39,208 nt of DNA from Oscillospiraceae bacterium (GTDB taxonomy: Bacteria > Bacillota > Clostridia > Oscillospirales > Oscillospiraceae), in contig JAFSXP010000079.1 of the NCBI GenBank assembly GCA_017443965.1, positions 1 to 39,208 of the forward strand, written 5' to 3'. A program made the translations under genes and the position numbers. The notes beneath the pieces are model-generated. The model saw nothing but the letters and a program-made list of their open reading frames with translations, did no database searches and had not been told where the DNA came from. Within the stretch, counting starts at the first letter, position 1, and every line of letters begins with the position of its first letter. Below, in pieces: positions 3,214 to 39,208 of this stretch.

Positions 3214-3217
3214 GATG

Positions 3218-4480
<1,263 letters not shown>

Positions 4481-4493
4481 AAGTTCTCCTCAC

Positions 4494-5075: not shown

Positions 5076-5103
5076 ATGTTTGCCTCCTTACTTCACGTAG
5101 TCC

Positions 5104-5136
5104 AAAAGATAGCATGATGCGCTCATGCTATCTTTT
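5104..5136 (-). terminator. Rho-independent terminator after tig
   Basis: 13-bp stem aaaagatagcatg/catgctatctttt followed by ttttgg on the minus strand. A second small hairpin (aaccgtt...aacggtt) lies at about 5151-5171. Confidence 0.55.
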
Positions 5137-5169
5137 GTGACAAAACAGTGTAACCGTTCGATAAACGGT

Positions 5170-6687
5170 TTATTCCTCATTCTTCTTGGCTGCCGGTTTC
5201 TTCGCCGCAGGCTTCTTGGCGGCAGGCTTTTTCGCGGCGGGCTTCTTCTCCGCAGCGGGCTTTTCCTCCGTCTTCTTCGCAGCCGGCTTCTTTGCCGCAG
5301 GCTTCTTTTCCGCGGCGGGCTTCGCCTCGGACTTCTTGGCAGCAGGCTTCTTCGCGGCAGCGGGCTTTTCCTCCGGCTTCTTGGCGGCGGGCTTCTTCTC
5401 CGCCGTCTTCTTCGGCGCAACTGCCTTGGCGCTGTCCGCGATGATCTTGACCGCTTTTCTCGCCTCCAGATCGCTGCGGACGGCAGCCTCGTCGATCGCC
5501 GCCTTCACGCGGTCGACCTCCATGCCGTACTGTTCGGCAAGCTTACCGTACTCTTCCTCGATCTCCTCAGCCGTGATCTCGATCTTCTCGATCGTGACGA
5601 TCTCGCTTAAAAGGATGTTGGACTTGACGGTCTTTTCCGCCATCGGACGCATGTTGGCGCGCAGTGCCTCCATATTGCCGCCGGTCATTTTCATGTAGTC
5701 CTCGAACTTCATGCCGTTCATCTGGAGCTGATAAGCAAACTGCTCCATATGACGGTCGACCTGTTCGTCGATCATGCAGGCGGGGATGTCGCACTTCATC
5801 TGCTCGGCAGCCGCCTCGACGGCGTCGTTTTCGAACTGCGTCTGCGCCTGCTGCTCGCGCTCTTTCTTGAAGCGCGCCTTGATGTCCTTGCGCAGCTCCG
5901 CCATGGTGTCGAACTCGGAAACGTCCTTGACGAATTCATCGTCCTTCTCGGGCACGATGGTCTCCTTGACCTCGTGGATCCTGCACTTGAACGTTGCGTC
6001 CTTGCCGGCAAGCTTCTTGTCGTACTGCTCGGGGAACGTCACGTTGACGTCGCGGTCCTCGCCCGCCTTTGCGCCGACGAGCGCCTCTTCAAAGCCGGGG
6101 ATAAACTGCCCCGAGCCGAGCTTGAGCGTATAGTTCTCCGCCTTGCCGCCCTCAAACGGCTTGCCGTCCACAAAGCCCTCGAAATCGAACACGACGCTGT
6201 CGCCCATCTGCGCCTCGCGCTCAACGGTGACGATCCGCGACGCGTTCTGCGCCATGCGGTCGACCTCCGCATCGATCTCCGCCTCGGTGACCGTGACGGG
6301 CGTCTTCGGCACTTCCAGACCCTTGTACTCGCCCAGCTTCACCGTGGGATACAGCGCAGTCACGACAGTCAGCACCAGCGTGCCGTCCTCCGCAACGTCC
6401 ATATCGCTGAGCGACGGGCTGCCGACGACTTTGAGCTTCTTCGACTTTACGGCGTCGCCGTAGAGCTCCGGGAAGATCTCATTGACGGCGTCTTCATAAA
6501 ACACGGATTTGCCGTACATACCCTCGATGACCTGCCGCGGGGCGTGACCCTTTCGGAAGCCGGGGACGAAAATGTTCTTTTTCGCCTTCTTGAACGCCGT
6601 GTTGATCGCATTGTCAAACTGTTCCTTGGTCGCCTCGATCACGATCGTGGCATTACCTTTTTCTTTCTTTACACTCTTGACACTCAT
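5170..6687 (-). CDS. tig: Trigger factor (ribosome-associated PPIase chaperone) with Lys/Ala/Pro-rich C-terminal tail
   Basis: 505 aa. N-terminal ribosome-binding motif GFRKGHAP, a central FKBP-type PPIase segment (DFEGFVDGKPFEGG), and a C-terminal chaperone arm. About 84 extra residues of AAKKP-type repeats follow. RBS aaggagga. Confidence 0.93.
   Translation of the reverse strand: MSVKSVKKEKGNATIVIEATKEQFDNAINTAFKKAKKNIFVPGFRKGHAPRQVIEGMYGKSVFYEDAVNEIFPELYGDAVKSKKLKVVGSPSLSDMDVAEDGTLVLTVVTALYPTVKLGEYKGLEVPKTPVTVTEAEIDAEVDRMAQNASRIVTVEREAQMGDSVVFDFEGFVDGKPFEGGKAENYTLKLGSGQFIPGFEEALVGAKAGEDRDVNVTFPEQYDKKLAGKDATFKCRIHEVKETIVPEKDDEFVKDVSEFDTMAELRKDIKARFKKEREQQAQTQFENDAVEAAAEQMKCDIPACMIDEQVDRHMEQFAYQLQMNGMKFEDYMKMTGGNMEALRANMRPMAEKTVKSNILLSEIVTIEKIEITAEEIEEEYGKLAEQYGMEVDRVKAAIDEAAVRSDLEARKAVKIIADSAKAVAPKKTAEKKPAAKKPEEKPAAAKKPAAKKSEAKPAAEKKPAAKKPAAKKTEEKPAAEKKPAAKKPAAKKPAAKKPAAKKNEE
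5173..5425 (-). repeat. Low-complexity tandem repeat encoding (P)AAKK(P/S/T)E units at the 3' end of tig
   Basis: Visible iteration of a roughly 15-nt unit (gccgcaggcttcttg, ggcggcaggcttttt and so on). The protein tail is KKPAAKKPEEKPAAAKKPAAKKSEAKPAAEKKPAAKKPAAKKTEEKPAAEKKPAAKKPAAKKPAAKKPAAKKNEE. Confidence 0.9.
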
Positions 6688-15954: not shown

Positions 15955-16085
15955 CGGAAAGCACCACACGCGATCGTATGGTGCTTTCCGAAACGCTCCC
16001 TACGACGGCATGATCCGTATCAGGTCAAAGGGTCCGGGAATCGTCCATCCCATCTCAGCCGGCTTTCGCGCCGACACCCCCGCTG
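15955..16085 (-). promoter_or_regulatory. TPP (THI-box) riboswitch with terminator-type expression platform
   Basis: The minus strand reads GGGGTGTCGGCGCGAAAGCCGGCTGAGATGGGATGGACGATTCCCGGACCCTTTGACCTGATACGGATCATGCCGTCGTAGGGAG. It contains the conserved CTGAGA and ACCCTTTGAACCTGAT..GGAT.ATGCC..CG elements. An 11-bp hairpin follows (ggaaagcacca/tggtgctttcc, 15956-15989) and then a U-rich tract. Confidence 0.85.
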
Positions 16086-16108
16086 TGCAGTTGTGGTGTT
16101 CCGAACAG

Positions 16109-24739: not shown

Positions 24740-26140
24740 ATGACGGATCGGAAACGACTTTGCGCGGCAGCGCTTCTTTTTGCGCTGCTGTTTGCGCTCG
24801 CCGGCTGTGCGAAACGTCCCGTGCGTGTGCTGCCGCTGACAGACGGCGATATCCGCGTTTTTGAAACGACCGAGGACGGGCTTTCAACGCGCTCGTATGA
24901 GGACGCAAACGGCATCCGCCTCGACATGATGCGTCTGACGCACGGCGGTGTGGAAAACACATACTGCTTTTACAGCGAAACGGTCCCCGAAGGATCCGTG
25001 CTGCGCGTCTACGACGCCGTCTCCGAGGGCTGGACCACTGCGCCGGTCACGGCGGGCACTTACACGACAAGCTGCGCCGTGCTGGAGCTGCCGGACGGAG
25101 AAACGCGGTTTTTCTTCCTGCCGGTGACGTATCTTGCGCACGGGCACGACGTGCTGGAGCAGCAGACCTCCCTGCCCGGCTCGCTGGATGTGCGGCAGTC
25201 GGACGGCGGGTTTGCGATCACAGTAAACGGACAGACGGACGCGGACAGCTTCTGCACCGACTTTACAATGGTCACAGCGCCGATGCTGCTGCTGGATTGG
25301 AACAGCGACAACTGGGCGTCGGTCTGGGGACGATACACCGACGACGGCGAGGCAAAGTGGTGCTATACCGGCTACTACCGCTTCACATCGGATAACTACG
25401 ATCCGACCGGCGACAACTGCTACTATCGCTGTCCGGCGACGTTTCTCGCGCGCGAGATCCGCTGGCAGCTCGGAAAGAGCGTCGCCGCGCCGCTTGTGAC
25501 GCTTGCGATGCTGGACACCGTGATGCAGACACAGAATGCGGCGGGTTACTTCCCCACCATGCCGAAAAGCGGCTGGCTCTCCGCCGACTACGGGATCGGG
25601 TACGATTTCTATGACACGCGCTTCAACACCGATCTGATGGATGCGGTGCTGGAAGCTCGGGCGCAGCTCGACGGCAAGCTGTTTCAGCGCGAGCTGGAGC
25701 GATACGCGGCGTTCTATACGGAATTTGCAAACGCGCATCACACGGAGACGGAAAATGGTGGCTGGCTCGTGGCGGATTATTGGTCCGCGGACATGACCGC
25801 CGAGCCGCACACGTCGCTCAATCATCAGCTTGCCGAGTGTCTGCTGCTGTACCGTTTGCAGGACGACAGCGGCATCGGCGCGTACGGCGAGCTGGCAGAC
25901 AAGCTTCTGCAGGCAGTAGACGACACCGCCCCGGATTGGGTGAAGGACGATCACGATCTGCACTACTGCCGCTACGCGGACGGCAGTTACGGCGCGAAGG
26001 ACTATCCCGATCTGACGCAAAAGGATCTGGTCGCGCTGCGCAGGTATCTGATCCGCGAGCGCTACCGCACGGACACGGCGCTTGACGAGCTCATCCGCGA
26101 GAAGCGGATCTGGATGGATGCGAACGGCATTTCGTATTAA
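24740..26140 (+). CDS. Uncharacterised lipoprotein (466 aa), possibly a glycan-active alpha/alpha-toroid-like protein
   Basis: Signal peptide with lipobox MTDRKRLCAAALLFALLFALAG|C. Balanced composition rich in Y/W/D, consensus promoter upstream and terminator downstream. The competing antisense ORF (24884..26146) is Arg-rich and looks like an artefact. The functional guess is weak. Confidence 0.7.
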   Translation: MTDRKRLCAAALLFALLFALAGCAKRPVRVLPLTDGDIRVFETTEDGLSTRSYEDANGIRLDMMRLTHGGVENTYCFYSETVPEGSVLRVYDAVSEGWTTAPVTAGTYTTSCAVLELPDGETRFFFLPVTYLAHGHDVLEQQTSLPGSLDVRQSDGGFAITVNGQTDADSFCTDFTMVTAPMLLLDWNSDNWASVWGRYTDDGEAKWCYTGYYRFTSDNYDPTGDNCYYRCPATFLAREIRWQLGKSVAAPLVTLAMLDTVMQTQNAAGYFPTMPKSGWLSADYGIGYDFYDTRFNTDLMDAVLEARAQLDGKLFQRELERYAAFYTEFANAHHTETENGGWLVADYWSADMTAEPHTSLNHQLAECLLLYRLQDDSGIGAYGELADKLLQAVDDTAPDWVKDDHDLHYCRYADGSYGAKDYPDLTQKDLVALRRYLIRERYRTDTALDELIREKRIWMDANGISY

Positions 26141-26147: not shown

Positions 26148-26186
26148 ACACAGGAACGGGAAAAACTCCCGCTCCTGTGTTTTTTT
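26148..26186 (+). terminator. Rho-independent terminator after the lipoprotein gene
   Basis: acacaggaacggga-aaaac-tcccgctcctgtgt (one mismatch) followed by tttttt. Confidence 0.6.
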
Positions 26187-26243: not shown

Positions 26244-29200
26244 TTACGTCAGCACGATACCGTAACCGCCCGCCATGTACTGGCGCAGCCGCAGCACGTC
26301 GCGCATGTTGATGCTGCCGTTGTGGTCGACGTCGCCATCTTCCTGATCGACCGTCACGCCGTAGCCGCCCGCCATGAATTGGCGCAGCCGCAGCACGTCG
26401 CGCATGTTGACGGTGCCGTTGCCGTCCACGTCGCCGGGCACGTAGATCCGGAACGTCGTCACGGCAGTCGCGCCGCCCGCCGTGATCGAGGCGGTCGCCG
26501 TGCCGAAAGCGGTGTTGTTCGCGTAGGCGATCTCAAGCTCGCCGCCGAGCCAGCCATCGGAATACTCGACCGTCGCGGCTGTGACCGGCTCGCCCGTGTA
26601 CCGCGAGCGCACCGCGCTGATCGTGGCGGAAGCCGTATGATCGCAGCGCGAGCAGATCTCGGTCAGCACAGCGCCCTCCGCGCTGTAGCTCAGATCGTGA
26701 CCGAGCGCGGCGATCGGCTTTGTCACGCGGCTGAGCTCCGCATGGCAGACCGAGCAGTAGACGACCTCGTCGTAGCTGCCCGCCGCCGTGCAGGTCGGGG
26801 CGATCTCATTCTCGCGCACCGCCGCGCCTGCCGTGTGTCCCATCGCCGGGATCGGCTTCGTCACGCGACTCAACTCCGCATGGCAGACCGAGCAGTAGAC
26901 GACCTCGTCGTAGCTGCCTGCCGCCGTACAGGTCGGAGCAGTCTCATTCTCACGTACCGCCGCATCCGCTGTGTGTCCCGTCGCCGGGATCTCGGCGTAC
27001 GTCGTATAGTCGCAGCGCGTACAGGTGTCATATGCCGCCCATCCGATCCCGGTGCAGGTCGGCACCTTTGCGTCGTGATGCACGAGATCATGCCCGAGCG
27101 CAGCCGTCTCATCCGCGACATAGCTGTCTCCGCAGCGGGTACAGGTGTAAGTCGTATAGCCCGTCGCGGTACAGGTCGGCGGCGTCACAACAGCCGCATA
27201 GTCGTGACCGAGCGCCTCGATCCGATACGGCGTACGGTCGCCGGAAGCGTTTTCGATGTAGACGATCACGTCTTCCGTGCAGTTGCCGACAGTCTCGCCG
27301 CCGAGCTCTTCGCCGCCGCTTGCCGCCGTCCACGCCGTGTAGCCGCTTTCGAGCGTCAGCGTTTCGGTGAGCGGATCGAACGAAGCGCCCTTCGCCTGCA
27401 GCGCGATCACCTGCACGTTGCCGGTGGCGTCGACCGTCACGCTGTCCGCGTAGGTCTGATACAGCGCCGCTTCCGCCGTGACGTCGTAACTGCCGACGTT
27501 CTTCAGGAACAGCACCTCGCCGTTGGCGTCCGTCTGCTGCGTCTCGCCGTCCAACGTGACGGCGGCATCGCAGATCGGCGTTTCCACGGCGTCCGTGATG
27601 CGCAGGTATGCCGAGAACATGCCGGAGCGATCCACGTCCAGACTGACGACTAACGGATCGTCAGTGAGCGCCGTGAACGAGAAACTGCCGTTTTTGCCCT
27701 TGTAGCCCACAGCGCTGACCGTCCAGCGGTACGTTCCGTACGGGATCGTCAGTTCGGCGACGCCGTCCGCGCCGCTGACGGCGCTGTGATCGCCGAACGT
27801 CACCGCGGCGCCGGGAACGCTGCCGCCGTTGCCGTTTACGATCACGCGCACCGTGCCGCCCGTCGCAAGCGCGACGCTCTCGGTCCTCGAAACGGCGCTG
27901 AAGGCCGCCGTGCCGCTCGCCGGCAGATAACCGTCCTTTGTCACGGTGTATTCGTATTCGCCCGGGAGCAGATTGATCGTCGCCTTGCCGTCCGCGCCGG
28001 TCGTTACGCTCTCGCCGTTGACCGTCACGGTCGCGTCCGCGGCGGCGACCCTGTCTGCCGTCACGGAGAAGACCGCTTCGATCTGCTCGCCGACGATGAC
28101 CGTGTAGGTGTTTCTTGTACGGCCGCCGCCGCTGACGGCTGTGATCACGACCGTGTGCGTGCCGTCGCCGACGCTGCCGCCGGCGGGAACCGCGCGGTAG
28201 CGTCCCAAAGACGTCTCGGTGACCGTCGCTGCGGTGCCGTCCACCGTTAGGACCGGAACTCCGTCAAGCGCGCTTTCGTCGTCGCTCACCGTGAAGATGA
28301 ACTCCTTCACGTCCGTGCCCAGCAGGATGTCGGTCTGCGGCGTGAGCAGTGTGACGACGGGGGCTGTGCTGTCACCGACCGCGGTCGTAACGGGAACGCG
28401 CTCGCTCTCCTCGCCGAGCTTTCCGTTACTGCCGATCACACGGGCATAAACGTAGCTGACGCCGTTATACTGCGGTATCAGGGCGGCGTCATAGCTGCCG
28501 TCCGCGTTCGCGGTGACGATCCCCTCAAACACGCCGGCGTCGCTCTCGTCTTCCGCCAGGAAGATCGCGACGGTCGCGTCGGGCTGCGCGGTACCCTGCA
28601 CGGCGATGGTGCCGTCCGAAGCGTTCCCGGCTTTCAACTCGGTCGCGCCGGGAACAGCGGTGTCAAGGCGGACCGTGACCGGTACGGTCAGCTCCCATCC
28701 GCCATTGACAGGCGTCCATTCATAGGCGCTGACGTCGGTATTGAAGCGATCCGCCACGATCCGGATTGTCACGCTGCCGGTGTAATCGCCGTCAGGCGTG
28801 TCCGCATCGGGATAGTAGTTCAGGATCATCTGTTTGCCGCCGCCCGCGTCGAGGGTGAAGACGCTTTCCGTCTCCGTGCCGTTTGCCGCAGTGATCGTCG
28901 GCGCAGGGATCGTCCGGTCTGCGCCGGTCAGCGCCGTGGCGCTGACGGTGACGTTCATGCCGGTGGTCTGTCCCGTCTCGTAGACCGACAGCGGCAGCGC
29001 CGCCTTCACGCCGCTTTCTCCGCTCTTGTCGCTGTACTCGCCCGCCAGTGCCGCGATATAGGGCATATCCAGCCCCGCCACAGCGCCGCAGTCCGGCGTA
29101 ACGACCGTGGAAAGATCAAAGGTCAGCTCGCTGTCGCCCGCGTTGACGACCGTGATCGTATAGTCGCCGGTGGCGTCGGGGATCAGGACAAAGTCGTCGT

Positions 29201-32200
29201 CACCGATGAGCGAAAGCTTCTGCTGCGTGCCTGCGCCGGTCACAGTCAGGCGGAGGTTCTCCTCGCCGGACAGTGCCGCCGCGAAGACGTAAAGCACAGA
29301 GCCGTCGGGTGCGGACACGGTCGCAGTCCGGCTCTCGCCTGCCGCCAGTGTGCCGCCGAGCGGCTGCGTCGCCATGGCGTTGGTCCTGAGGTACTCGACC
29401 GTCTTCTTCGAGCCCACGTTGAAATGCGTGACGTACGGTCCGAAGGTCGGCGCGATGGTCATGGTATCCGCTTCGGAGGCGGCGAAGGTGAACACGGCGG
29501 TATAGCCGCCCGCGTCGCGCAGGAGATTGATCGGTACGGCGATGCTCGCGGTGAAGTCCGCCGTTGCGCCGGCAGCAACAGTCTGAGTACCCATGCTCGC
29601 TGTGGTGACGAAGCCGAAGCTGTCGTAGATGTCCACAGTCGGGGCGACGGTGACAGTGCCCGTATGCCCGTTGTGGACGGAGATCGCCGCCGTGACGTAG
29701 TCGAAGTCCTTCGCATCGGTCACGAGATCGCCCACGTCTGCGGTCACGATCTCGATGGGCAGCTCGGGGTCGATCTTGCGCCAGCGTTCCATCGTCTCAA
29801 ATACGCTCTTGAGGTCGCCTGCGACAGCCGCCTCCTTGGAGAGCATGAGATTGGTCGTCGCAGCCAGATCTGCCGTCGCCTTGGAGAGGTTGAAGAGATT
29901 GCCGTCGTCCAGCGTATTCAGAGCGGTGGCGATCCCCTCGTTGCCGATGGAGAGCACGTTACCTGCCATGCCCAGCATCGTGCCGGTGACGACACCTGCA
30001 GGCGTAGCGGGCGCCACGCTCAGCGCCGTACCGATGAGGGACCAACTCGTCTCCGCCGCCTTGAGCGAATTGAGCTGATAACGGGAATCCACGTTCATCC
30101 AGCCCTCCGCCAGCAGGGAGTCGACGACCTGCTGCGCCTTGTAGAGCTCGCCGAGGGTGATCTCGTTCGTGGTCAGATCGTATCCGCCGCCGGAATACGT
30201 CCACAGGCTGCGGTAGCGCCCGACGCGGCTTGCCGGGATCGGCTCGCCGTTGCTCTGCCGCACCATGGCGCTGATGGAAGCGTTGAGTCCCTTCACGTAA
30301 TCCAGCAGCTGCGTGGAGGGATAGTAGCCGGTCAGCATATCCGGGTCGTTCAGGTAGCGGTCGATCATGCCGCTGATCTCGGTCAGCGTCGCGTTCGCCC
30401 CATTCTGGATGTTGTAGACGTTCGTAGCGGCACCGAGAGATGCCTCGGTCGCCGCGTCGAGCGTCAGGCGATAATCGCTCTTTCCGCCTGCGATCGTCAG
30501 CTTGCTGTAAGCCGCCTTGAACTTTGTCTCGTCGATCAGCTTCCGCAGTGAGAGCTTAACGATCGCCGTGGCAACGCAGCGGTACTTATCGGTCTTGCTG
30601 ACGCACTTGCCGTACTCGGCGCTGAAATCGGAAGTGAACTGTGTCTGATTGAACCACTCGTTGGCGGACGGATCGTTTCCGACCACGGTACGGACGATCT
30701 CGCCCGCAAGTTGTCCGTCGCTGATCTCGCCGCGCTCGAGCTTGCCCAGCACCGCGCCCACGGTGTTGACCATCTCGGGCGTCGAAGCGTTCACGCTCTT
30801 CAGGTGCGCGGCGTCGACGACCTGGAAGTCGCTCGCCAGCCACTTGAACGGGATCAGATAGAAGTTTGTCACCGTTTCGTTCCATGCGTTTCTGTTCTTG
30901 CGCAGGGCATCGAGTTTGTCCTTCGCGGAGCCGTTGGGGTCGTAACCGATGCTGGTAAAGATCTGCCTGGCTGCCGTGGAAAGCGCCTTGGCGTCGCTCG
31001 TGTAAGCTTCCTCACCGCTGAGAAGGTCGCTCATGCCATCCGCAGACTTCTGCATCGTGTCGACCTTTTCCTCCAGATCCGCCAGCCTTGTGAGCTGCGC
31101 AAGCGCGGCGACGACGTTGTTGATCTGCGGCGCGAGCATACTCTCCGCCTTCGCGAGATCCAGGTAAGCCGCCTCTTCCAGCTTGTAACGGTTCATCTGC
31201 GCCATCAGCCCGTCGCCGGAAAGCTCGTCGCGCTGCTTCGCCAGCTCCTCCAGCATGGGCTCGCGCAGCGCATGCGCTTCCTTCGCCAGCTCCGCCGCCT
31301 TCTCCATGTTGACGCGTGCGAGCTTGATCTTCTCGGCGCGAACGGCGGCGTCGGTGGTTTCCATGGCGGTGTTGACGTCATTGCAAGCCTGCGCCAGCAG
31401 CTCTGCCGCGGCGCTGATCTTGGCGCGGTAGGCAGAGGCGACGGCGCCGAATTTGAACATCGTCTGATTGACGTCGTCAACGTTCAGCAGCTCTTCCACA
31501 GTTCCCTGCCAGTAGGGAATGTCCTTGGGCACGAAGTTCACGATCCAGTCCATATCCTGCGAAAGGACTTCCATGGCTTTGCTGAAGTTGCTGCGATACG
31601 CATCGAGCTGTCCGAATTTGGTGGGCTCGAGTTTCATCTCACTGACGCCCTTGCCGAGATCGGAAAGGCTCGACCGCAGATCGACGTAGCCCTTGAGCGT
31701 CATGAACAGATTCACCAGCTTGCCGATGCCGGAATAGACTTCGCCGATGGAGATCGCCCGCTTGAGATTGGACGTGTAATCGTAGATGTCGCCGAGCGAA
31801 CGTCCCAGCTCGGACGCAGTCTTGTCCGTGAGCAGCGTCAGGTTGGTGCTCAGCTCTCCGAGCTCGGTCTGGATGCTCCGCAGGTTGTCTGCGGTGCGCA
31901 TCGTATTCATCTGCTCAAGCTGCATCGGTGCAACGATGACGTCCGCGCCGAGCGAGGACTTGATCGGCAGCGACGGCAACGCCGCCAGCTTGCCGAGCGA
32001 GAGCTGCTTCGCGTTGCTCATCTCGCCGATGATCGCAAGCTCGTAGGAGATCACGGCGGTATCGCCCGCGTGCAGTACGCTGATCTCCACGCGATCCTGC
32101 TCCGCAGTGACGCGGTTGCTCATCATCACGACGCCCTTCGTGCTGCTCACGCCGACGACGCGCATCTCCATGCCGTCCACGGCGGGGATGGTCGGGACGC

Positions 32201-35200
32201 CGATCGTGACGTTGTTGGCGTCGCCCGCGCCGAGATTTGTCACGGTCGCGGTCAGGAAGTACTTCCCGGACGCATCCTGCAGGAGATCGTAACTGACATA
32301 CAGCTTCGGCTTTTCCCTGACCTCGTATTCGCGCGCGGAGGTCGTGTAGCTGTATTCCTTGCCGTCGATCTCAAACGTCATCTCAAAGCGTGCGTAGACC
32401 TTACCGGAAGCGCTCTGCTTCGTGACATACTGCATCAGCGACTCGTCGTATTCTTCGATCCACCCGTAGTCGCGGATCAGCCGGTCGAGGCGGAAGCGGC
32501 AAGTGACCTCTGTCTCCTCGCCCGGTTCGATGCGTCCGCCGATGGCGTCGCCGTCCACGGTCATGCTGCCGCCCTTGCAGGTGATGTTGACGTTCGGCGT
32601 CAGCGGCTCGCTGCCCTCTTCGGGTCCGTCCGTCAGAACGAGGCGCAGCCTGACGTTCTCCATCGGGTGCATCTTCGACGGGTTCTTGAGCGAGAACTTC
32701 AGCGAAGTGATCTGTCCCTCATAGCCCACGGAGCCGGCAAAGCCGAAATCGACGGACACGTCCTCGTTGTCCTCGGGCAGATCGGGTACGCTCTGCTGGA
32801 GGCGGTTCAGGAAGCCGGTGCTGTATTTCATCTTGCTGACCGTGCCGGAGGCGGGATCGAACGCGGGATCGACCTGCACCTTTTGCTCGATGTCGGGATG
32901 GACGTCGTAGATGCTGCCTGCCTTGTAGCCGGTGTAGTTGCCGTCCGCGTCATAGGGATCGGTCTCGCCGGCGCTGACGTAGTAATCGGGCGCGACGTAG
33001 TGCACGCGCACGGGCACACGGGTCTCGATCAGTTCGCCCGTCTCGGCGTTGGTGCCGGAGGCGAGAATCACGAAATCGAACCAATACGGCTTTTCGCCGT
33101 AGAAGACCGGCACGCGGTCAGACGGCGGCGAAGACGTGCCGTCCTCCGCGACCGCAGTCCGGTAAATACCGGTATTGGTCGCGGCGTCGAAGCTCACAAG
33201 CGTGAGCGAGCCGACAGAAGCAGGATCGTTGGCAGCCAGATATGCCTTGCGCTGCGCCTCCGTCACGCCATCCGGGAAGCGAACGGCATACTCACCGGCA
33301 GTCTCCGTCGCGCTGACGTCGGCGATCAAGAAGAAGCTGTCGATATCCAGACTCCACACGACATCGAACACGCCGTTCGGCTTGACGGTGCCGATGTTTT
33401 TCACGGGGCTGAGCGATCCGCCCGTGCTGATCGACACCGCGCCGGTTGGGATATCGGTATCGAGATCGGTGATACGGACCGTCACGCCGCTGACGCTTTC
33501 CGCCGCGTGCTCGGGGTTCATGAACGACACTTTGCCGATCATTTTGCCGCTCTGATAGAAGAACTCCTTCTCATCGCCGACGAAGTTGGGCACGAGCGAC
33601 GTCTGATTGCCGTCCGCAAGCAGCTTCGCCTTGAACGTGAGGTTGTTGTAATTCGGCGAAGCGGCGGTGGCGCTGCGAAGCTCTTCCATGGTCTCCTCGT
33701 CCACGCTGAACGTGAACAGGCTGCGCTGCAGCGTCACAATGCGCGGCGTCCTGTCAATGAGCGCAGCGATGGCGACGGTCGTCTCCAGCGTGCTGTGATC
33801 GGCGGCCGTGACGGTGAGGCTGTAATCGCCCGCGGGGATATTCTCGAACGTAACAAGACCGTTTTCATCGCTTGTCTGTCCGAACACGACGGGATCGAGC
33901 TGCTCGTCGAGTCCGACAAGCGTCATCTCGGCGTTTTGCAGTAGCGTGTTGTCCTGATTGCGGATCTCGAACACGGCGGTGCCGATCATGCCCGCGCCGA
34001 CCGAAACCTTGATCGGTACGGTCACAGGCTCGCTGAGCGACGGCGAGGTGATGGTCACCGTGCCGTCATACACGCCAGTCAGGCAGGAGTCGGTAGGCGA
34101 CGCCGTCGCCACGATGGACATGCTGCCCTGCGGGTCGCGGATCGAATAACCGCGGCTGACGGGCTGGATGACCGCCTCGGGATCCACGCCTGTCAGCAGC
34201 ACGAACGGCAGATCGGTCGAAGCCGATACGCCGGTGATCGGCGCTGTGCCGATGTTGGTCAGACGGATGACCGCGCTTGCCGCCGCGCCCTGCCGCAGAG
34301 ACATGGTGATGCTCGGCGTCTGCAGACCTTCGCTTTCCGCCTCGCCGCTGCCGATCACGTTCACACGCGCTCTTGCGACCGCACGCTCACAGGTGATCTT
34401 CACCGTCTTCGTGCCGCCGCCAGCGTTCACCGTGACGTCGTAGTCGTTCGGCGCGAGCGTATTCGACGCTGTGAAGCGGATCGTGACCGCCGCGCCGCTT
34501 TCCGCGGCAAGCGTGCCGTTCGGCGCCGAAACGATCTCGTAGGTCAGCCCGTCGGGCAGACCGCTGACCGTGACGCCGCCGATTTCCGTGGCGGTGACGC
34601 CCGGATTGTTGAGATAGCCCGCCAGCACGGCGTCGCTGCCCTGCACGACAGTCAAGCGGTCATCCACGTCCACGCTGACGCCGTCCACGTAGAACGTCAC
34701 GCGGTCGGAGCGCCGTTCGACGGCGCTGTAGGTCGCCGCCGCGCGGAGCGCGAATGCGCCGCCGACGCCCTCGGGCAGCTCGATCGCAGCGCTGTAGCTG
34801 CCGTCCGACGCGGTCACGGCATCGGCGCTGAAGCGTTCGCTGCCGACGGCTGTGACCGTCACCGCGGCGCCCGCGATGCCGGAGCCGTCCGTGTTACTGA
34901 CAAAGCCGGTCACAAGGACAGCGTCGCCGAGGCGGTAGCTCTGTTCGTTTGCATTATCCAGCGTCACGCGGAAGTCGTCGGCGACGGTAAACGCCGATTC
35001 GACGCTCTTCGTAACGCCGTCCTTTTCGGCGGTGAGACTAAGCGTATAAGAGCCGGTCTGCGTCATCACGGCGCTGCCGGTATACGTGCCCGTCGAGGCG
35101 TCGTAGCGCATCTCGACCGCGGTATCTCCGCCGCCCGCCTTGGTGATGACCGCGCTGAAGCTGTCCGCCTCGACCGGCAGATACGAAGCGTCGCTGGATG

Positions 35201-38200
35201 CGACCGACGCCGTGATCTCCACCGTGTCGCCGACGCAGTAGGAAGCGCCGTCCGTGCCGCCCGTCAGGATCAGACCGGAAGCGATCTCGATCGTCCTGAC
35301 CGCGCTCGCCGCCGAGCGATCCGCAAGGACCAGCTTGCTTTCGGCGTCCGCGTAGACGCGCATCGTGCAGCTCCCGCTGACCTGCGCCGTCCAGTCGATC
35401 GTGACCGGGGCGCTCTCGCCAGCCGCAAGCGCGCCGCACTCCGCGACGCCCACACGACTGCCGCCGACGTAGAGCACGACCTTGAACGGCTGCTCGATGG
35501 CGCGGTCGCCGCTGTTGCGAATGGTGACGACCGTTCTTGCGCTGTCGCCGTATTTTGCCGCGCCGGTGGTCGTGATATCGGTAATCTCGAGCTTACTGCT
35601 GCTGACCTTGATCGGCGCGGCAAAGCGCGTCGTTGCGATATTGTTGGTCTCGGAACGCTCGGCAAGGACCTCGCCCGCGTCGGCGACCGCAGTGATCGAC
35701 GAAACGGAGATCGCGGGATCCTTCCAGACGAAGCTGACCAGCGTGCTTTCGCCGCAGCGCAGCGCCGTCACTTCCGTGCTGCCGATGAAGCGGCTGTCGG
35801 CGTAGAAGCTGAGACGCGTCGCCTTTGTCGCGTCGCCCGCGCCGATGTTCTTCACGGTGGCGTACAGGACGATGTTCTGTCCCGGTGCAAGCGTCGCCGC
35901 GGTCATGCCGGTGTCGATCCCCGTCACCTCAAGGTCGGGATACAGGATCGTCAGCGACGAGTAGACCGCCGCCGCAGTATTGTTCTCCTCGTCCATCTCA
36001 ACAACGCTGGAGATCGGGCCGTCGGCAACGAACTTCAGCACATGACCGCCGCCGTTTTCCGGCTTCCACGTGAAGCTCACGTTTTCGCCGGCGCCTGCCG
36101 CCAGACCGTCGATCAAACGGGAGACGACAAGTTTGTCGTTATCGTACAGCAGGACCTTGAACGCCGGCGCTGCCGCCGTTCCGTTATTCCTGACGGTCGC
36201 GCTGACCGTGATCGGCGCGCCCCAGGAGACCGTATCGCCGTCGGTGACGGCTGCACTGAAGCCGGACACCGCCAGATCGGCAAAGTCCGTCTCGCTTCCG
36301 CTGAGCACGGTATCAAAGCGGTTGTTGTCGTAGTTGACTTCGCGGATATTGCGGCCGATGTCGTTGACGACGGCGCTGAGCTTCTGCGCGCCCGCCTCCG
36401 CCTTGAAATCAATGGACGCCGTCGCAGTCGAGCCGACCTCGAGGTCGCCGTTCATCTCGGCAAAGCCGATGTACTTGTCGTTGAGATAGAAGCCGACCAG
36501 ATAATACGCGTCCGCGCCCGTCGGCGTCAGACCGCCGGTGTTCGGCAGCGTGCCGTTCTGGATCGTCGCAGTCGCCGTGACCGTATCGCCCTTGTTCGGG
36601 CTGTCATTGCTGAACGCGATGTTGTTGATGAACAGATCGGGGCAGTCGGCGTTGACCGTGACCTGGATCTCCGAGAAGTAGTTGTACTCCGTCCTGCTGG
36701 ACGCGATGATCTCGTCCGTGACGGGATCGCGCAGATACGGCTCCGTGGACGACAGATTGCTGTCGGTCACGTAGAGCGACGCACGGTAAGTGCCCGCGTG
36801 CTGATACACGTGGGTGGGCGTCGGACCGTAGCCGCTTTCGCCGTCGCCGAAGTCCCAGACAAAGCTGCCGATATAGCCGTCTGTGTCATAAGAGCGGCTG
36901 CCGTCAAAGCGGACCTGCTGCCCCATGACTGCGTCGGTGATATCCGCGCCGGCGTGGCTGTACGGCAGATCGTTGACGGTCGCCTTGCCGGTTGCGGTGC
37001 TGATTAGGCTGCCGCCGTTGTCGTGAAGCTCCGCCGTGATCGTATAGGTCGTGCCGCGTGCCGGCGTCCAGTCGGTGCAGTAGACCGCCTGCACGGCATA
37101 CGGTATGATGTTTGCAAACGCGATCTCCGCGCTGCGGAACTCCGGCGTATCGCTGTCTGTCGGCGTCGCGGTGAACACGACGTACCCGCTGAGATTCTCC
37201 TTGCCGCGGTTATCGATCGTGGCGCGCAGCGTGATATCGCGGTCGCCGACGTCGGGATAGACACCGGTGTCATAGTACGCCGTTTGCTTGAGATACCAGC
37301 CGGTCGTGCCCTTGCCGAGCTGCACGGCGCCCGGGGTGTCGGGATCCGCCGCGACGTAGGTAAAGCGCGAATAATCCACGGCGCTGATGAACGCGGCGCT
37401 GCCGAACTCGACCGTGTAGTAACCGTCGGGATAACTGCGCGTCAGATCGTCGGCATAGCGGATGGGGATCTCGCTGACGATGTAGATGTAGCCGTAATCC
37501 TTCCAGTAGTTGCCCGGCGAGAGCGTCACGGCGTCGGAGCCGTCGGCGCGCACGCCGAACTTGACCGCGGCGATGCTGCCGCAGCCTTCGGGCTCGGGGA
37601 TCATAACGACCTGATAGCGCGCGGATACGTCTGTCTTCGGGCCGGCGGCAACGACCGTCATGGCGCTGCCGTCATAATCGGAAGTCACGCGGACGCTGTC
37701 CGGCACGTAGATGGGAACGCGGAGTCCGGTATCCAGATTCAGCAGATAGTCGCAGAAGCCGGTATCGCCCTCGTTGACGAGCGCGAGTCCTTTCTCTCCT
37801 TCCGATCCGGCGAGGACGCCGTCCTTGCCGATGATGCTGGTGTTGGCGGCGACGATCAGCGGGTTGAGTTGGACGCCCTTGTAATCCTTGTGCGTCAGCG
37901 TCGCCTTGAATTCGCGGAACTCGCCCTCATAGGGATCGCCCTCGGTGATCGGCATATTCCAGCGCACGATCCAGTAGCCGCTGACCTTGCCGGGCACAAG
38001 ATCCCACTCGCCCGTCTCTTCGTTATATTCGCGGGTGGCGGCGGGAACGTTGCCGAAGGACAGTTTGAATTCGCTGCCGCTGCTGCTGCCGAACGAACTG
38101 TCGAGGATCTCAAAGTCGGTGATCATGCCGCTCTGGTTGCTCTCGACCTTGAGCTGGCCGGAATTGATGTTCAGGTTCATCGCTTCGCCGTAGCCGTGGT

Positions 38201-39208
38201 TCTCCACGGTGACGCCGAGGCGGAACGGCGTGTTGGAGAGGATGTTGTGCGGGACGTAGTAGTTGAGCGTCAGCTTCGGCTGGGGCAGGATGGTAATGGG
38301 AACGCCCTCCGTCTCCGTCTGCACCAGCTGTCCGTTGACGTAGTAGGACACCAGCGCGGAGGCGTAGTACACGCGCCCCTCCGGCTCCGTGCCGCCGAGG
38401 TCCGCGCCCGGAATGATCTGCCAGGTGGCGGTCAGTGCGCCGCCCGAGGGCAGGCTGCCGTTGCCGTCTACGTCGGAGATGCCGCTCACGCCCGTGGCGA
38501 TGATGAAGTTCCTGCCGCTCACGTCCGTGCCGTTCTCGTCCTTGACCAGAACGTCCACGCGCAGGTTGTTCAGCGCGAATTCGGGGTAGCCGTTGGTGAC
38601 CTTCAGCGTCGCGTCAAACGCCTGGCGCTCCAGCGTCGCGGTCTGGTTGAGGCTGAGCTTGACGATCTCGTAGACGGAGCCGCCGTCCTGCGCGAGCTCC
38701 TTCTCCCTGTCGATTTCCTCCGGCGCGATGTAACGCAGCTCCTCGATCTGCCCCTCGGGCAGGAGGACGGTCTCCTCCCTGACCTCATTGTTGTTCTCCG
38801 GCATACGCACCTCAAGCTTCACGGGCTTGTCGCTCGGATTGTAGAGGGGCAGGCTGCCGGTGATCTTCGGTGCGGGGTCGACGGGCATGCCCGTGTCGGG
38901 GTCGAAGGACACATATGAGCCTTCCAGCCGGATGTAGTTCTTTGCGTTGCCCGCGGCGTTCACGCCGTAGGGCAGGTTGTAGACGCCGGGCTGCACGAGC
39001 AGCTTGATGCGCGCGCTGCTCTGCGCGGGGATCTCGCCGATGTAGCCGCCGCCCACGATGCTGATGCCCATGTCGGAGGCGTTCTCGCGCACGACGGACG
39101 CGACCACGTCCGTAATGGCGATCAGACCGGTGTTGACCACGTTCGCCTCGACATAGACCGGCTCGGTCACGTTTTTCGGGATGTTGACCCACGGCGGGTT
39201 GAAGCCGA
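26244..39208 (-). CDS. Giant dockerin-terminated multidomain extracellular protein (>4,320 aa; 5' end beyond window)
   Basis: One uninterrupted frame. The track's first residue is a GTG at 39170, but the frame stays open to the window edge (GFNPPWVNIPKN|VTEPVYVEANVV...). The protein holds PKD, CARDB-like and carboxypeptidase-regulatory-like beta-sandwich modules, a long helical insert, Cys-rich repeats and a C-terminal dockerin. A terminator follows the stop. Confidence 0.9.
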   Translation of the reverse strand, partial: GFNPPWVNIPKNVTEPVYVEANVVNTGLIAITDVVASVVRENASDMGISIVGGGYIGEIPAQSSARIKLLVQPGVYNLPYGVNAAGNAKNYIRLEGSYVSFDPDTGMPVDPAPKITGSLPLYNPSDKPVKLEVRMPENNNEVREETVLLPEGQIEELRYIAPEEIDREKELAQDGGSVYEIVKLSLNQTATLERQAFDATLKVTNGYPEFALNNLRVDVLVKDENGTDVSGRNFIIATGVSGISDVDGNGSLPSGGALTATWQIIPGADLGGTEPEGRVYYASALVSYYVNGQLVQTETEGVPITILPQPKLTLNYYVPHNILSNTPFRLGVTVENHGYGEAMNLNINSGQLKVESNQSGMITDFEILDSSFGSSSGSEFKLSFGNVPAATREYNEETGEWDLVPGKVSGYWIVRWNMPITEGDPYEGEFREFKATLTHKDYKGVQLNPLIVAANTSIIGKDGVLAGSEGEKGLALVNEGDTGFCDYLLNLDTGLRVPIYVPDSVRVTSDYDGSAMTVVAAGPKTDVSARYQVVMIPEPEGCGSIAAVKFGVRADGSDAVTLSPGNYWKDYGYIYIVSEIPIRYADDLTRSYPDGYYTVEFGSAAFISAVDYSRFTYVAADPDTPGAVQLGKGTTGWYLKQTAYYDTGVYPDVGDRDITLRATIDNRGKENLSGYVVFTATPTDSDTPEFRSAEIAFANIIPYAVQAVYCTDWTPARGTTYTITAELHDNGGSLISTATGKATVNDLPYSHAGADITDAVMGQQVRFDGSRSYDTDGYIGSFVWDFGDGESGYGPTPTHVYQHAGTYRASLYVTDSNLSSTEPYLRDPVTDEIIASSRTEYNYFSEIQVTVNADCPDLFINNIAFSNDSPNKGDTVTATATIQNGTLPNTGGLTPTGADAYYLVGFYLNDKYIGFAEMNGDLEVGSTATASIDFKAEAGAQKLSAVVNDIGRNIREVNYDNNRFDTVLSGSETDFADLAVSGFSAAVTDGDTVSWGAPITVSATVRNNGTAAAPAFKVLLYDNDKLVVSRLIDGLAAGAGENVSFTWKPENGGGHVLKFVADGPISSVVEMDEENNTAAAVYSSLTILYPDLEVTGIDTGMTAATLAPGQNIVLYATVKNIGAGDATKATRLSFYADSRFIGSTEVTALRCGESTLVSFVWKDPAISVSSITAVADAGEVLAERSETNNIATTRFAAPIKVSSSKLEITDITTTGAAKYGDSARTVVTIRNSGDRAIEQPFKVVLYVGGSRVGVAECGALAAGESAPVTIDWTAQVSGSCTMRVYADAESKLVLADRSAASAVRTIEIASGLILTGGTDGASYCVGDTVEITASVASSDASYLPVEADSFSAVITKAGGGDTAVEMRYDASTGTYTGSAVMTQTGSYTLSLTAEKDGVTKSVESAFTVADDFRVTLDNANEQSYRLGDAVLVTGFVSNTDGSGIAGAAVTVTAVGSERFSADAVTASDGSYSAAIELPEGVGGAFALRAAATYSAVERRSDRVTFYVDGVSVDVDDRLTVVQGSDAVLAGYLNNPGVTATEIGGVTVSGLPDGLTYEIVSAPNGTLAAESGAAVTIRFTASNTLAPNDYDVTVNAGGGTKTVKITCERAVARARVNVIGSGEAESEGLQTPSITMSLRQGAAASAVIRLTNIGTAPITGVSASTDLPFVLLTGVDPEAVIQPVSRGYSIRDPQGSMSIVATASPTDSCLTGVYDGTVTITSPSLSEPVTVPIKVSVGAGMIGTAVFEIRNQDNTLLQNAEMTLVGLDEQLDPVVFGQTSDENGLVTFENIPAGDYSLTVTAADHSTLETTVAIAALIDRTPRIVTLQRSLFTFSVDEETMEELRSATAASPNYNNLTFKAKLLADGNQTSLVPNFVGDEKEFFYQSGKMIGKVSFMNPEHAAESVSGVTVRITDLDTDIPTGAVSISTGGSLSPVKNIGTVKPNGVFDVVWSLDIDSFFLIADVSATETAGEYAVRFPDGVTEAQRKAYLAANDPASVGSLTLVSFDAATNTGIYRTAVAEDGTSSPPSDRVPVFYGEKPYWFDFVILASGTNAETGELIETRVPVRVHYVAPDYYVSAGETDPYDADGNYTGYKAGSIYDVHPDIEQKVQVDPAFDPASGTVSKMKYSTGFLNRLQQSVPDLPEDNEDVSVDFGFAGSVGYEGQITSLKFSLKNPSKMHPMENVRLRLVLTDGPEEGSEPLTPNVNITCKGGSMTVDGDAIGGRIEPGEETEVTCRFRLDRLIRDYGWIEEYDESLMQYVTKQSASGKVYARFEMTFEIDGKEYSYTTSAREYEVREKPKLYVSYDLLQDASGKYFLTATVTNLGAGDANNVTIGVPTIPAVDGMEMRVVGVSSTKGVVMMSNRVTAEQDRVEISVLHAGDTAVISYELAIIGEMSNAKQLSLGKLAALPSLPIKSSLGADVIVAPMQLEQMNTMRTADNLRSIQTELGELSTNLTLLTDKTASELGRSLGDIYDYTSNLKRAISIGEVYSGIGKLVNLFMTLKGYVDLRSSLSDLGKGVSEMKLEPTKFGQLDAYRSNFSKAMEVLSQDMDWIVNFVPKDIPYWQGTVEELLNVDDVNQTMFKFGAVASAYRAKISAAAELLAQACNDVNTAMETTDAAVRAEKIKLARVNMEKAAELAKEAHALREPMLEELAKQRDELSGDGLMAQMNRYKLEEAAYLDLAKAESMLAPQINNVVAALAQLTRLADLEEKVDTMQKSADGMSDLLSGEEAYTSDAKALSTAARQIFTSIGYDPNGSAKDKLDALRKNRNAWNETVTNFYLIPFKWLASDFQVVDAAHLKSVNASTPEMVNTVGAVLGKLERGEISDGQLAGEIVRTVVGNDPSANEWFNQTQFTSDFSAEYGKCVSKTDKYRCVATAIVKLSLRKLIDETKFKAAYSKLTIAGGKSDYRLTLDAATEASLGAATNVYNIQNGANATLTEISGMIDRYLNDPDMLTGYYPSTQLLDYVKGLNASISAMVRQSNGEPIPASRVGRYRSLWTYSGGGYDLTTNEITLGELYKAQQVVDSLLAEGWMNVDSRYQLNSLKAAETSWSLIGTALSVAPATPAGVVTGTMLGMAGNVLSIGNEGIATALNTLDDGNLFNLSKATADLAATTNLMLSKEAAVAGDLKSVFETMERWRKIDPELPIEIVTADVGDLVTDAKDFDYVTAAISVHNGHTGTVTVAPTVDIYDSFGFVTTASMGTQTVAAGATADFTASIAVPINLLRDAGGYTAVFTFAASEADTMTIAPTFGPYVTHFNVGSKKTVEYLRTNAMATQPLGGTLAAGESRTATVSAPDGSVLYVFAAALSGEENLRLTVTGAGTQQKLSLIGDDDFVLIPDATGDYTITVVNAGDSELTFDLSTVVTPDCGAVAGLDMPYIAALAGEYSDKSGESGVKAALPLSVYETGQTTGMNVTVSATALTGADRTIPAPTITAANGTETESVFTLDAGGGKQMILNYYPDADTPDGDYTGSVTIRIVADRFNTDVSAYEWTPVNGGWELTVPVTVRLDTAVPGATELKAGNASDGTIAVQGTAQPDATVAIFLAEDESDAGVFEGIVTANADGSYDAALIPQYNGVSYVYARVIGSNGKLGEESERVPVTTAVGDSTAPVVTLLTPQTDILLGTDVKEFIFTVSDDESALDGVPVLTVDGTAATVTETSLGRYRAVPAGGSVGDGTHTVVITAVSGGGRTRNTYTVIVGEQIEAVFSVTADRVAAADATVTVNGESVTTGADGKATINLLPGEYEYTVTKDGYLPASGTAAFSAVSRTESVALATGGTVRVIVNGNGGSVPGAAVTFGDHSAVSGADGVAELTIPYGTYRWTVSAVGYKGKNGSFSFTALTDDPLVVSLDVDRSGMFSAYLRITDAVETPICDAAVTLDGETQQTDANGEVLFLKNVGSYDVTAEAALYQTYADSVTVDATGNVQVIALQAKGASFDPLTETLTLESGYTAWTAASGGEELGGETVGNCTEDVIVYIENASGDRTPYRIEALGHDYAAVVTPPTCTATGYTTYTCTRCGDSYVADETAALGHDLVHHDAKVPTCTGIGWAAYDTCTRCDYTTYAEIPATGHTADAAVRENETAPTCTAAGSYDEVVYCSVCHAELSRVTKPIPAMGHTAGAAVRENEIAPTCTAAGSYDEVVYCSVCHAELSRVTKPIAALGHDLSYSAEGAVLTEICSRCDHTASATISAVRSRYTGEPVTAATVEYSDGWLGGELEIAYANNTAFGTATASITAGGATAVTTFRIYVPGDVDGNGTVNMRDVLRLRQFMAGGYGVTVDQEDGDVDHNGSINMRDVLRLRQYMAGGYGIVLT
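26247..26445 (-). other. Type-I dockerin module (C-terminus of the giant protein)
   Basis: Two duplicated Ca-binding loop-helix segments: GDVDGNGTVNMRDVLRLRQFMAG and GDVDHNGSINMRDVLRLRQYMAG. The two DNA segments are also nearly identical, about 99 nt apart. Confidence 0.85.
26640..27225 (-). repeat. Five tandem Cys-rich mini-domains (GH-x7-12-PTCTxxG-x5-8-C-x2-C), two of them a near-identical 138-bp duplication
   Basis: The five units are ALGHDYAAVVTPPTCTATGYTTYTCTRCG, ALGHDLVHHDAKVPTCTGIGWAAYDTCTRCD, ATGHTADAAVRENETAPTCTAAGSYDEVVYCSVCH, AMGHTAGAAVRENEIAPTCTAAGSYDEVVYCSVCH and ALGHDLSYSAEGAVLTEICSRCDH. DNA copies at about 26712-26849 and 26850-26987 differ only by scattered transitions. Confidence 0.8.
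27395..28092 (-). other. Three consecutive carboxypeptidase-regulatory-like (CarboxypepD_reg / Cna-B-like) beta-sandwich modules
   Basis: The pattern V.V.....A.V......T...G...L.L..G.Y.Y.V...GY recurs three times, for example ATVTVNGESVTTGADGKATINLLPGEYEYTVTKDGY. A fourth copy lies at about 33775-33990 (ENGLVTFENIPAGDYSLTVTAADH). Confidence 0.55.
29760..31925 (-). other. Alpha-helical insert of about 720 aa (track residues about 2415-3137) within the giant protein
   Basis: The composition switches abruptly from a G/T/V/D-rich beta-type sequence to an A/L/E/K/Q-rich sequence with heptad-like stretches (AAELLAQACNDVNTAMETTDAAVRAEKIKLARVNMEKAAELAKEAHALREPMLEELAKQRDEL). Secondary structure is inferred from composition only. 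Confidence 0.5.
35290..36650 (-). repeat. Four tandem CARDB-like domains
   Basis: Each unit of about 110 aa starts with (P/A)DL.(V/I) and contains V.(N/I).N.G...A.. Three end in (E/D).NN: PDLFINNIAF...NYDNNRFD, ADLAVSGFSA...EMDEENNTAA and PDLEVTGIDT...ERSETNNIAT. The fourth begins KLEITDITTT. Confidence 0.7.
36740..36965 (-). other. PKD domain
   Basis: VRFDGSRSYDTDGYIGSFVWDFGDGESGYGPTPTHVYQHAGTYRASLYVTDSN contains the canonical WDFGDG and HxY..xGxY.V.L.V.D PKD signature. Confidence 0.8.

Follow-up and report, generated by a model that had tools for sequence, protein, structure and literature searches.

A giant dockerin-terminated protein of a rumen Oscillospiraceae bacterium and its possible role as a surface fibre

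The DNA described here (the window) is the complete 39,208-nt contig JAFSXP010000079.1 of an Oscillospiraceae bacterium (assembly GCA_017443965.1). Its right-hand part is occupied by one giant open reading frame (ORF) on the minus strand, which encodes a very long protein ending in a dockerin; the domains of this protein, its relatives and its possible place at the cell surface are the subject of this report.

Frame and domain content of the giant gene

Translation of minus-strand positions 26244-39206 gives 4,321 codons with one stop, at the end only. The frame is open at the window edge, and GFNPPWVNIPKN stands before the listed GTG start. Because the window is a complete contig, the 5' truncation of the giant gene is an assembly break. 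Two ENA contigs from other samples (L016 and L017) match the window at 99.96-99.97% identity, gapless over 21.4 and 14.8 kb, and the matching stretch takes in the 3' 9.9 kb of the giant gene; one of them has a gene call of 6,026 residues, still cut by the contig end. The fragment in the window has a mass of 457 kDa and an acidic pI of 4.4. It has no membrane-spanning segment, and no 19-residue stretch reaches a Kyte-Doolittle mean above 1.6. An earlier reading made from the letters alone (the sequence-only reading) had placed the true N-terminus outside the window, and GFNPPWVNIPKN and the upstream starts of orthologs (see below) bear this out. It had also named a frameshift or an assembly collapse as what would undo the ORF, against which stand the two independent gapless assemblies, and had described the gene as similar in G+C content to its flanks, as was found.

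The features of the giant gene are listed below. Residue numbers count along the 4,320-residue window fragment, not along the full-length protein.

26244..39208 (-): giant ORF, C-terminal 4,320 residues and stop codon; 5' end cut at the contig end
37257..39206 (-): string of all-beta sandwiches with motif VYEIVKLSLNQTATLERQAFDA, residues 1-650; no Pfam family; defined by conservation, distant homologs in other phyla and a structure model
36750..36959 (-): PKD domain, residues 750-819; Pfam PKD_4, 1.7e-16, and ColH PKD domains in PDB
35334..36608 (-): four tandem CARDB domains, residues 867-1291; Pfam, 2.5e-49 in total
34740..34937 (-): MG2-like beta-sandwich, residues 1424-1489; sub-threshold in Pfam (24.4 bits vs a cut-off of 32.8)
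33762..33965 (-): CarboxypepD_reg / SpaA-like prealbumin-fold domain, residues 1748-1815; Pfam
32067..33719 (-): beta region without annotation, residues 1830-2380; residues 2152-2335 paralogous to residues 182-347
29757..32066 (-): family-specific helical bundle with predicted long antiparallel helices, residues 2381-3150; homolog counts, model and variability
28287..29756 (-): conserved beta domains, including a so-called PPC-like segment, residues 3151-3640; no Pfam family, 55-69% identity to orthologs
27408..28052 (-): three tandem CarboxypepD_reg domains, residues 3719-3933; Pfam
26610..27215 (-): Cys/His-rich repeats, residues 3998-4199; no Pfam family
26274..26438 (-): type-I dockerin, residues 4257-4311; Pfam Dockerin_1, 2.7e-10, and PDB dockerin matches

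The CARDB units span residues 867-964, 995-1079, 1102-1192 and 1216-1291, the first being weak in Pfam if scored alone. CarboxypepD_reg domains were found at residues 1748-1815, 3719-3769, 3789-3846 and 3869-3933, with a partial one at 1432-1474 (Pfam, 6.6e-18 in total). The paralogy of residues 182-347 and 2152-2335 was seen by profile-profile comparison only (hhalign probability 78%, E 1.8e-5), BLAST having found no long-range internal duplication; it divides the core into two tandem super-modules, with the helical block after the second. The consensus of residues 3151-3640 is kept even in the distant homologs P0029 and P0030. The Cys/His-rich region consists of four GH-x(n)-C-x(n)-C-x2-C units and a fifth that is partial; they are probably mini-domains that bind metal. 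Two of the units, near-identical and 46 residues long, are encoded by a 138-bp x2 tandem duplication (26712-26991, copies 88% identical) that looks like a recent internal expansion. The dockerin scores 40.7 bits against a cut-off of 22.9 and has two DxDxNGxxxxxD loops, with near-identical Ca-binding segments DVDGNGTVNMRDVLRLRQFMAG and DVDHNGSINMRDVLRLRQYMAG.

Matches to PDB sequences were limited to the PKD domain and the dockerin, with a weak one to a single CARDB unit. No enzyme, toxin or defence family was detected in the 4,320 residues with Pfam, NCBIfam, PDB sequences, PHROGs and PADLOC, and neither the window protein nor some 5,000 upstream ortholog residues contain a glycoside hydrolase, carbohydrate esterase, polysaccharide lyase or carbohydrate-binding module. 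A motif scan found no HExxH; it found three GxSxG matches, none of them inside a match to a hydrolase family. SLH domains are absent according to Pfam, and the C-terminus has no LPxTG. The PKD domain, the four CARDB units, the at least four CarboxypepD_reg domains (four and one partial in Pfam), the Cys-rich repeats and the dockerin had all been named in the sequence-only reading, as had the absence of a catalytic module (neither the window protein nor the upstream ortholog residues have one in Pfam), of HExxH, of SLH and of an LPxTG anchor; searches confirmed these points. Its PPC-like segment found no database support. It overlooked the most unusual part of the protein, the 770-residue hypervariable helical block.

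Several candidate identities were rejected. The one LPNTG, at residue 887, lies inside the first CARDB unit, about 3,400 residues from the C-terminus, and was not accepted as a sorting signal. A PADLOC match to JetC (E 0.056) is at chance level. A thioester protein of the alpha-2-macroglobulin/complement kind was also considered and dismissed, the MG2 match being sub-threshold, the TM-scores (template modelling scores) to C5 and C3 about 0.1 and a CxEQ motif absent; nor did the helical block show any structural match to thioester domains. MG4 is faintly visible in Pfam in an ortholog.

Orthologs, family and the helical block

Homologs of the giant protein were sought segment by segment. A scan of species-representative genomes gave ten orthologous loci, in rumen metagenome-assembled genomes (MAGs) annotated as Oscillospiraceae or Clostridia (from water buffalo, sheep, goat, yak and red deer) and in one closed Bacillota chromosome. 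In six loci, from MAGs of different ruminant hosts, the frame is open over all of the 20.9 kb fetched (6,966 codons), which puts at least 3,333 open codons upstream of the position that matches the window edge. Two orthologs have true starts with a Sec signal peptide and a ribosome-binding site. The start in an ENA contig (MMTGRKNLKKLLALLLVMVQIPGFLPIYALA/DEY, preceded by AAGGAG) lies 5,002 codons upstream of the window-edge position, and that in the closest relative (MRRRWAKRALAFALALVMLAG...AFA/AAG, preceded by GAGGAGG) lies 4,879 codons upstream. The closest relative is 91% identical over the first 300 residues, and its giant gene spans 26,935 nt. A signal peptide is also present at the N-terminus of the full-length, 6,894-residue homolog of Acetivibrio alkalicellulosi.

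These starts would give the window protein a full length of about 9,200-9,300 residues and, scaled from the 457-kDa fragment, a mass of ~0.97 MDa; by this estimate the window holds the C-terminal 47% of the protein. The earlier figure of more than 4,320 residues was correct as a bound and amounts to less than half of this length. The upstream parts of orthologs carry fn3, Big_13, GH85_C, CHB_HEX_C_1, Fn3_assoc and PKD domains and a further five CARDB domains. Searches of the 3,333 upstream residues of two orthologs and of the N-terminal 2,335 residues of another found no catalytic, toxin or defence family.

Two copies of the gene are broken. In the closest relative (L013/L015, NODE_810, 51,939 nt) it is divided into four ORFs of 3,077, 1,349, 276 and 4,225 residues, and the frame changes could be an assembly error (coverage is 9x) or real decay. 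The ortholog on ENA contig_64 (L001/L012) ends at the equivalent of about window residue 880, with unrelated genes beyond it; the contig's housekeeping genes are fragmented too, which points to a noisy long-read assembly. A 104-residue ORF overlaps the start of the giant gene on contig_64 by ATGA.

The helical block (residues 2381-3150) had one match in a word-indexed search of 5.8 billion proteins and just 16 in a full HMMER pass over 1.84 billion representative proteins. All 16 come from giant proteins of this kind, as full copies or as fragments, including TYQ18185.1 (A. alkalicellulosi, 6,894 residues, full length), MBP5166947.1 (yak-rumen Oscillospiraceae MAG), NLO21083.1 (Syntrophomonadaceae MAG) and a fragment from a Clostridiaceae MAG. 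Named entries of the family are called 'PKD domain-containing protein' or hypothetical. The shared core has the order conserved beta module, PKD, CARDB array, MG-like, Ig, CarboxypepD_reg, beta region, helical block, beta domains and CarboxypepD_reg array. TYQ18185.1, MBP5166947.1 and NLO21083.1 are true homologs with the module order of the window protein, from which they differ in their C-terminal modules and N-terminal regions. Literature searches found no published description of such a family. It is a small, undescribed family of giant Clostridia proteins.

One orthologous fragment of 883 residues (P0001, NCBI, Oscillibacter sp. MAG) is named 'cellulose 1,4-beta-cellobiosidase, partial'. 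CarboxypepD_reg is its sole match, and the name is probably an annotation artefact. The conserved module of ~400 residues (ATLERQAFDA ... PQPxLTLDYFLP) occurs also at the N-terminus of surface proteins of ~1,100-1,300 residues in unrelated bacteria (P0006-P0010, e.g., Chitinolyticbacter albus), where Pfam gives no coverage; it is a candidate for a new domain family.

Models were scored by the predicted local distance difference test (pLDDT) and the predicted template modelling score (pTM). Residues 1-650 were modelled as all beta (pLDDT 58, better stretches 70-88), with only generic strings of Ig/MG-like domains as likenesses (complement C5, PrgB, integrin legs, pilins; TM-scores 0.1-0.2). The helical block gave a model with pLDDT 75.5 and pTM 0.57, in which long helices occupy block residues 56-132, 197-236, 240-281, 288-349, 640-684 and 689-761, beside a globular helical part and one beta hairpin. 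No structural match of the block was found in PDB or BFVD at E <= 0.001. Its sole profile match in PDB, to ESCRT-III/CHMP1B (19 bits, E 0.0026), was judged a chance or compositional likeness between long helices. The BFVD matches resembling phage tape-measure proteins (all E > 0.005, TM-scores 0.1-0.18) were rejected as generic long helices.

Conservation is uneven along the protein. Residues 1-650 are the most conserved part, with 80-90% identity to orthologs over residues 1-500, and the helical block is the least conserved, with 12-40%. Compared with the closest relative, the ratio of nonsynonymous to synonymous substitution rates (dN/dS) is 0.17 in the region of residues 1-650 and 0.17-0.47 outside the helical block, so that the giant protein is under purifying selection; in the block it is 0.58-0.71. 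The most variable block residues (121-220, 261-300 and 681-720) coincide with predicted turns between the long helices, while at its two ends the block is conserved. Antiparallel packing of the helices, if real, would bring the hypervariable turns together at one end of the bundle. Measured against the closest relative, synonymous divergence amounts to 0.33 over codons 1-300 and to 0.5-0.9 beyond them, a step that suggests a mosaic or recombinant history of the giant gene.

C-terminal tails and the proposed surface fibre

The shared core ends differently in different members of the family. In the window protein it is followed by the Cys repeats and the dockerin (2.2e-11 in the comparison of family C-termini), and in one ortholog cluster by a weak dockerin (9.4e-5). 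The tail consists of ten choline-binding repeats (2.4e-70) in the yak-rumen ortholog, of three SLH domains (2e-35) in a JGI homolog and of InlB B-repeats, without a dockerin, in the A. alkalicellulosi homolog; the closest relative ends in only a small beta domain and has no anchor. SLH domains and choline-binding repeats are cell-wall anchors, and their occurrence at the place of the dockerin points to a cell-proximal C-terminus. The comparison of tails argues that the dockerin is one interchangeable tether among several, of which some are anchors to the surface, and that it does not mark a cellulosome; it favours a general cell-surface tether over incorporation into an enzyme complex.

In accordance with the sequence-only reading, no cohesin was found in the window, either by Pfam on 20 neighbouring ORFs or by tblastn with the cohesin of a relative. 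Little can be concluded from this absence, since in the closest relative a cohesin-SLH gene follows 3 kb beyond the giant gene. The region 3-5 kb downstream of the giant gene in that relative encodes a 390-residue protein with a signal peptide, one cohesin (4.2e-6) and three SLH domains (3e-34), and also a 236-residue dockerin protein. With these genes the lineage has the parts for cohesin-dockerin surface display. The stretch L013 22901-32678 of the same relative, absent from the window, encodes an 847-residue secreted protein of no named family, the cohesin-SLH protein, the dockerin protein and a YDG/MBG_2 protein of >1,600 residues, for the full product of which SLH is on record; these form a small surface-display gene cluster.

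The reading that is favoured, with rather more confidence than doubt, is that of a Sec-exported, non-enzymatic, fibrillar adhesin-like surface fibre of ~9,200 residues (~1 MDa), tethered at its C-terminus. The N-terminal signal peptide seen in orthologs would direct export. The C-terminal type-I dockerin would plug into the cohesin of an SLH-anchored surface protein and so tether the C-terminus to the cell wall, and the dozens of beta-sandwich domains (fn3, Big, PKD, CARDB, MG-like and CarboxypepD_reg) would form a long stalk projecting the N-terminal part outward. About 1,200-1,900 residues from the anchor the chain would make a detour into the 770-residue helical bundle. The ends of the bundle, presumably its base, are conserved and the helix turns near-neutral in evolution, which makes it a candidate module for variable ligand recognition or surface variation.

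Gram-positive fibrillar adhesin-like proteins have a stalk, a C-terminal anchor and a distal N-terminus (PMC8286594), and the layout proposed for the giant protein fits this description. It is a long single chain (4,320 residues seen, ~9,200 by ortholog mapping) without a membrane segment, and ortholog Sec signals indicate that it is extracellular. Its stalk would be made of tandem domains (four CARDB, three tandem CarboxypepD_reg and PKD, with fn3, Big_13 and five CARDB upstream in orthologs). With the fibrillar adhesin-like proteins defined in PMC8286594 and PMC9210967, such as SasG, Ebh, Embp and CshA, it shares a very long secreted chain, a stalk of tandem Ig-like/beta-sandwich domains, the proposed C-terminal anchor and distal N-terminus, and fast evolution. 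In contrast to theirs, its anchor would be a dockerin, not LPxTG, SLH or choline-binding repeats, and dockerin is absent from the text of the fibrillar-adhesin survey (PMC8286594). It differs also in having no recognised adhesive domain and in carrying a non-repetitive helical bundle mid-chain. At ~9,200 residues it would be among the largest of these proteins.

Dockerin proteins that are not cellulosomal are borne on cohesin-SLH proteins according to the anchoring-scaffoldin principle, as on OlpB, SdbA and Orf2p of Acetivibrio thermocellus. The two-segment type-I dockerin at the extreme C-terminus and the single-cohesin, three-SLH protein in the lineage resemble this arrangement, but the cargo would be a megadalton beta-sandwich fibre, not an enzyme or scaffoldin, and the dockerin is swappable within the family. 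A further comparison is with the very large extracellular proteins that 'Giant genes are rare...' (bioRxiv 10.1101/2023.11.21.568195) reports from Clostridia and Omnitrophota, and for which it proposes a role in adhesion to other cells or surfaces. Some giants of gut Clostridia in that work carry dockerin repeats; the Clostridia giants have 10,000-30,000 residues and RCC1, Listeria-Bacteroides or YG repeats, and the Omnitrophota giants of dockerin type combine numerous dockerin repeats with membrane anchors and enzyme domains (bioRxiv 10.1101/2023.11.21.568195). The window protein is just under this size range, and its family differs in having a single terminal dockerin, a CARDB/PKD/MG-like core and the unique helical block. 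Large Clostridia proteins with dockerin repeats are thus already known in general; the present family, with its helical block, is undescribed. What is new here is the helical module and the anchor swapping, giant adhesin-like proteins not being rare in concept.

A more far-reaching proposal on the helical bundle is offered tentatively, as a possibility held with more doubt than belief. The bundle may be a new diversifying recognition module, with a conserved base and three hypervariable helix-turn tips directed at strain-specific targets (microbes, phage or host glycans), and the family a new class of surface fibres with interchangeable anchors. In such a case the bundle would be designed like variable helical-bundle surface proteins but unrelated to them.

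Several points weigh against a tethered adhesive fibre. No known adhesive family was recognised in the protein, the candidates being the N-terminal CHB_HEX_C/Fn3_assoc/PPC-like region of orthologs and the hypervariable helical block. The latter sits close to the anchored end, away from the distal tip, an unusual place for an adhesive head. In the closest relative, which has the cohesin-SLH gene, the giant protein ends without a dockerin, and a search of the 39-kb contig of the present organism found no cohesin partner. Some 2,900 of the fragment's 4,320 residues fall in no assigned family, so that an activity may have escaped detection, and the picture of the protein's own N-terminal half comes from orthologs just 34-52% identical in their N-terminal parts.

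Among other explanations, the protein could be a structural or substrate-targeting subunit of a cellulosome-like complex, docked into a multi-cohesin scaffoldin beside enzymes and binding plant fibre; the sequence-only reading had placed it among cellulosome-like components, assembled onto a cohesin-bearing scaffold. The canonical type-I dockerin with its two Ca-binding repeats and the rumen habitat agree with this, as do the CHB_HEX_C_1, Fn3_assoc and GH85_C modules of ortholog N-termini, which are accessory modules seen in glycosidases, and the position of the A. alkalicellulosi homolog 3 kb from two GH9-CBM3-dockerin genes. That homolog itself, however, has no dockerin, and since the dockerin is not kept in the family, its place on the same core being taken by SLH domains, choline-binding repeats, InlB repeats or nothing, the cellulosome framing does not fit. 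No carbohydrate-binding or glycoside hydrolase module is present anywhere in the protein, the window has no cellulosomal genes, and instead of a multi-cohesin scaffoldin the lineage has shown one cohesin protein only, an SLH anchor with a single cohesin; such a subunit is therefore considered unlikely. An enzyme with a divergent catalytic domain, hidden in residues 1-750, 1830-2380 or 3151-3640 or in the N-terminal half outside the window, would account for the name 'cellulose 1,4-beta-cellobiosidase' given by NCBI to one orthologous fragment, and room for it exists, about two thirds of the residues being without a Pfam assignment. It is decidedly improbable, because the named fragment has CarboxypepD_reg only, the model of residues 1-650 is all beta-sandwich with Ig/MG-like matches only, a profile search against PDB sequences found nothing, and neither HExxH nor a thioester motif occurs, the three GxSxG being outside any hydrolase-family match.

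The properties of the helical block could also suggest a contact-dependent toxin or membrane-active effector, the bundle being delivered or pore-forming in an arms race with target cells. The block is family-specific, has long helices and is the fastest-evolving part of the protein, and an action on other cells has been suggested for giant surface proteins of bacteria (bioRxiv 10.1101/2023.11.21.568195). Yet no toxin or pore-former family or fold was matched, there is no hydrophobic hairpin (Kyte-Doolittle mean never > 1.6 over 19 residues), the block is internal with conserved beta domains after it, and no candidate immunity gene adjoins it, the downstream gene encoding a convergent lipoprotein that is not kept beside orthologs; a toxin is accordingly very improbable. 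An assembly artefact or decaying pseudogene is already largely refuted and has next to no probability left. The giant gene is cut by a contig end, the copy of the closest relative is in four ORFs, and that of another relative is frameshifted and stops early; but these broken copies lie on a contig of 9x coverage and in a noisy long-read assembly, where housekeeping genes too are split. Against them stand the two near-identical gapless assemblies, the 6,966-codon frame open in six MAGs from different ruminant hosts, and dN/dS < 1 throughout.

The favoured surface fibre would bear on a poorly understood side of rumen biology. Uncultured Oscillospiraceae are abundant in the rumen, and their attachment to feed particles, microbes or host is largely unknown. 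A protein of ~1 MDa kept intact in many rumen lineages is costly and so probably central to the biology of their cell surface. Swapping of the dockerin, SLH and choline-binding tails on the same core supports cohesin-dockerin pairing as a general means of surface display outside cellulosomes. The helical block is large, confidently helical and without a structural relative, and its hypervariability is localised, which makes it tractable for structure work and binding screens. Giant genes of this kind are systematically fragmented and misnamed in MAGs, as the 'cellobiosidase' fragment illustrates.

Neighbouring and opposite-strand features

The neighbours of the giant gene differ between species. 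In the window it is followed by a convergent gene (24740-26140, plus strand) for a 466-residue lipoprotein with a signal sequence that ends in the lipobox LFALAGC and no Pfam family, which is kept in conspecific contigs and not beside the giant-gene orthologs of other species. Between the two genes lies one further feature:

26150..26172 (-): terminator-like hairpin; consensus match only

Antisense ORFs of up to 1,077 residues lie opposite the giant gene (e.g., 30711-33944, plus strand). They are without database evidence and are the usual by-product of coding sequence of high G+C content.

The rest of the window holds ordinary features. These include the housekeeping cluster tig-clpP-clpX-lon and a gene for a GH38 alpha-mannosidase (748-6687 and 11540-13939, both on the minus strand). 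A thiamine pyrophosphate (TPP) riboswitch (RF00059, 63 bits; 15980-16091, minus strand) stands upstream of genes for a Thia_YuaJ thiamine transporter and a thiamin pyrophosphokinase, again an ordinary arrangement.

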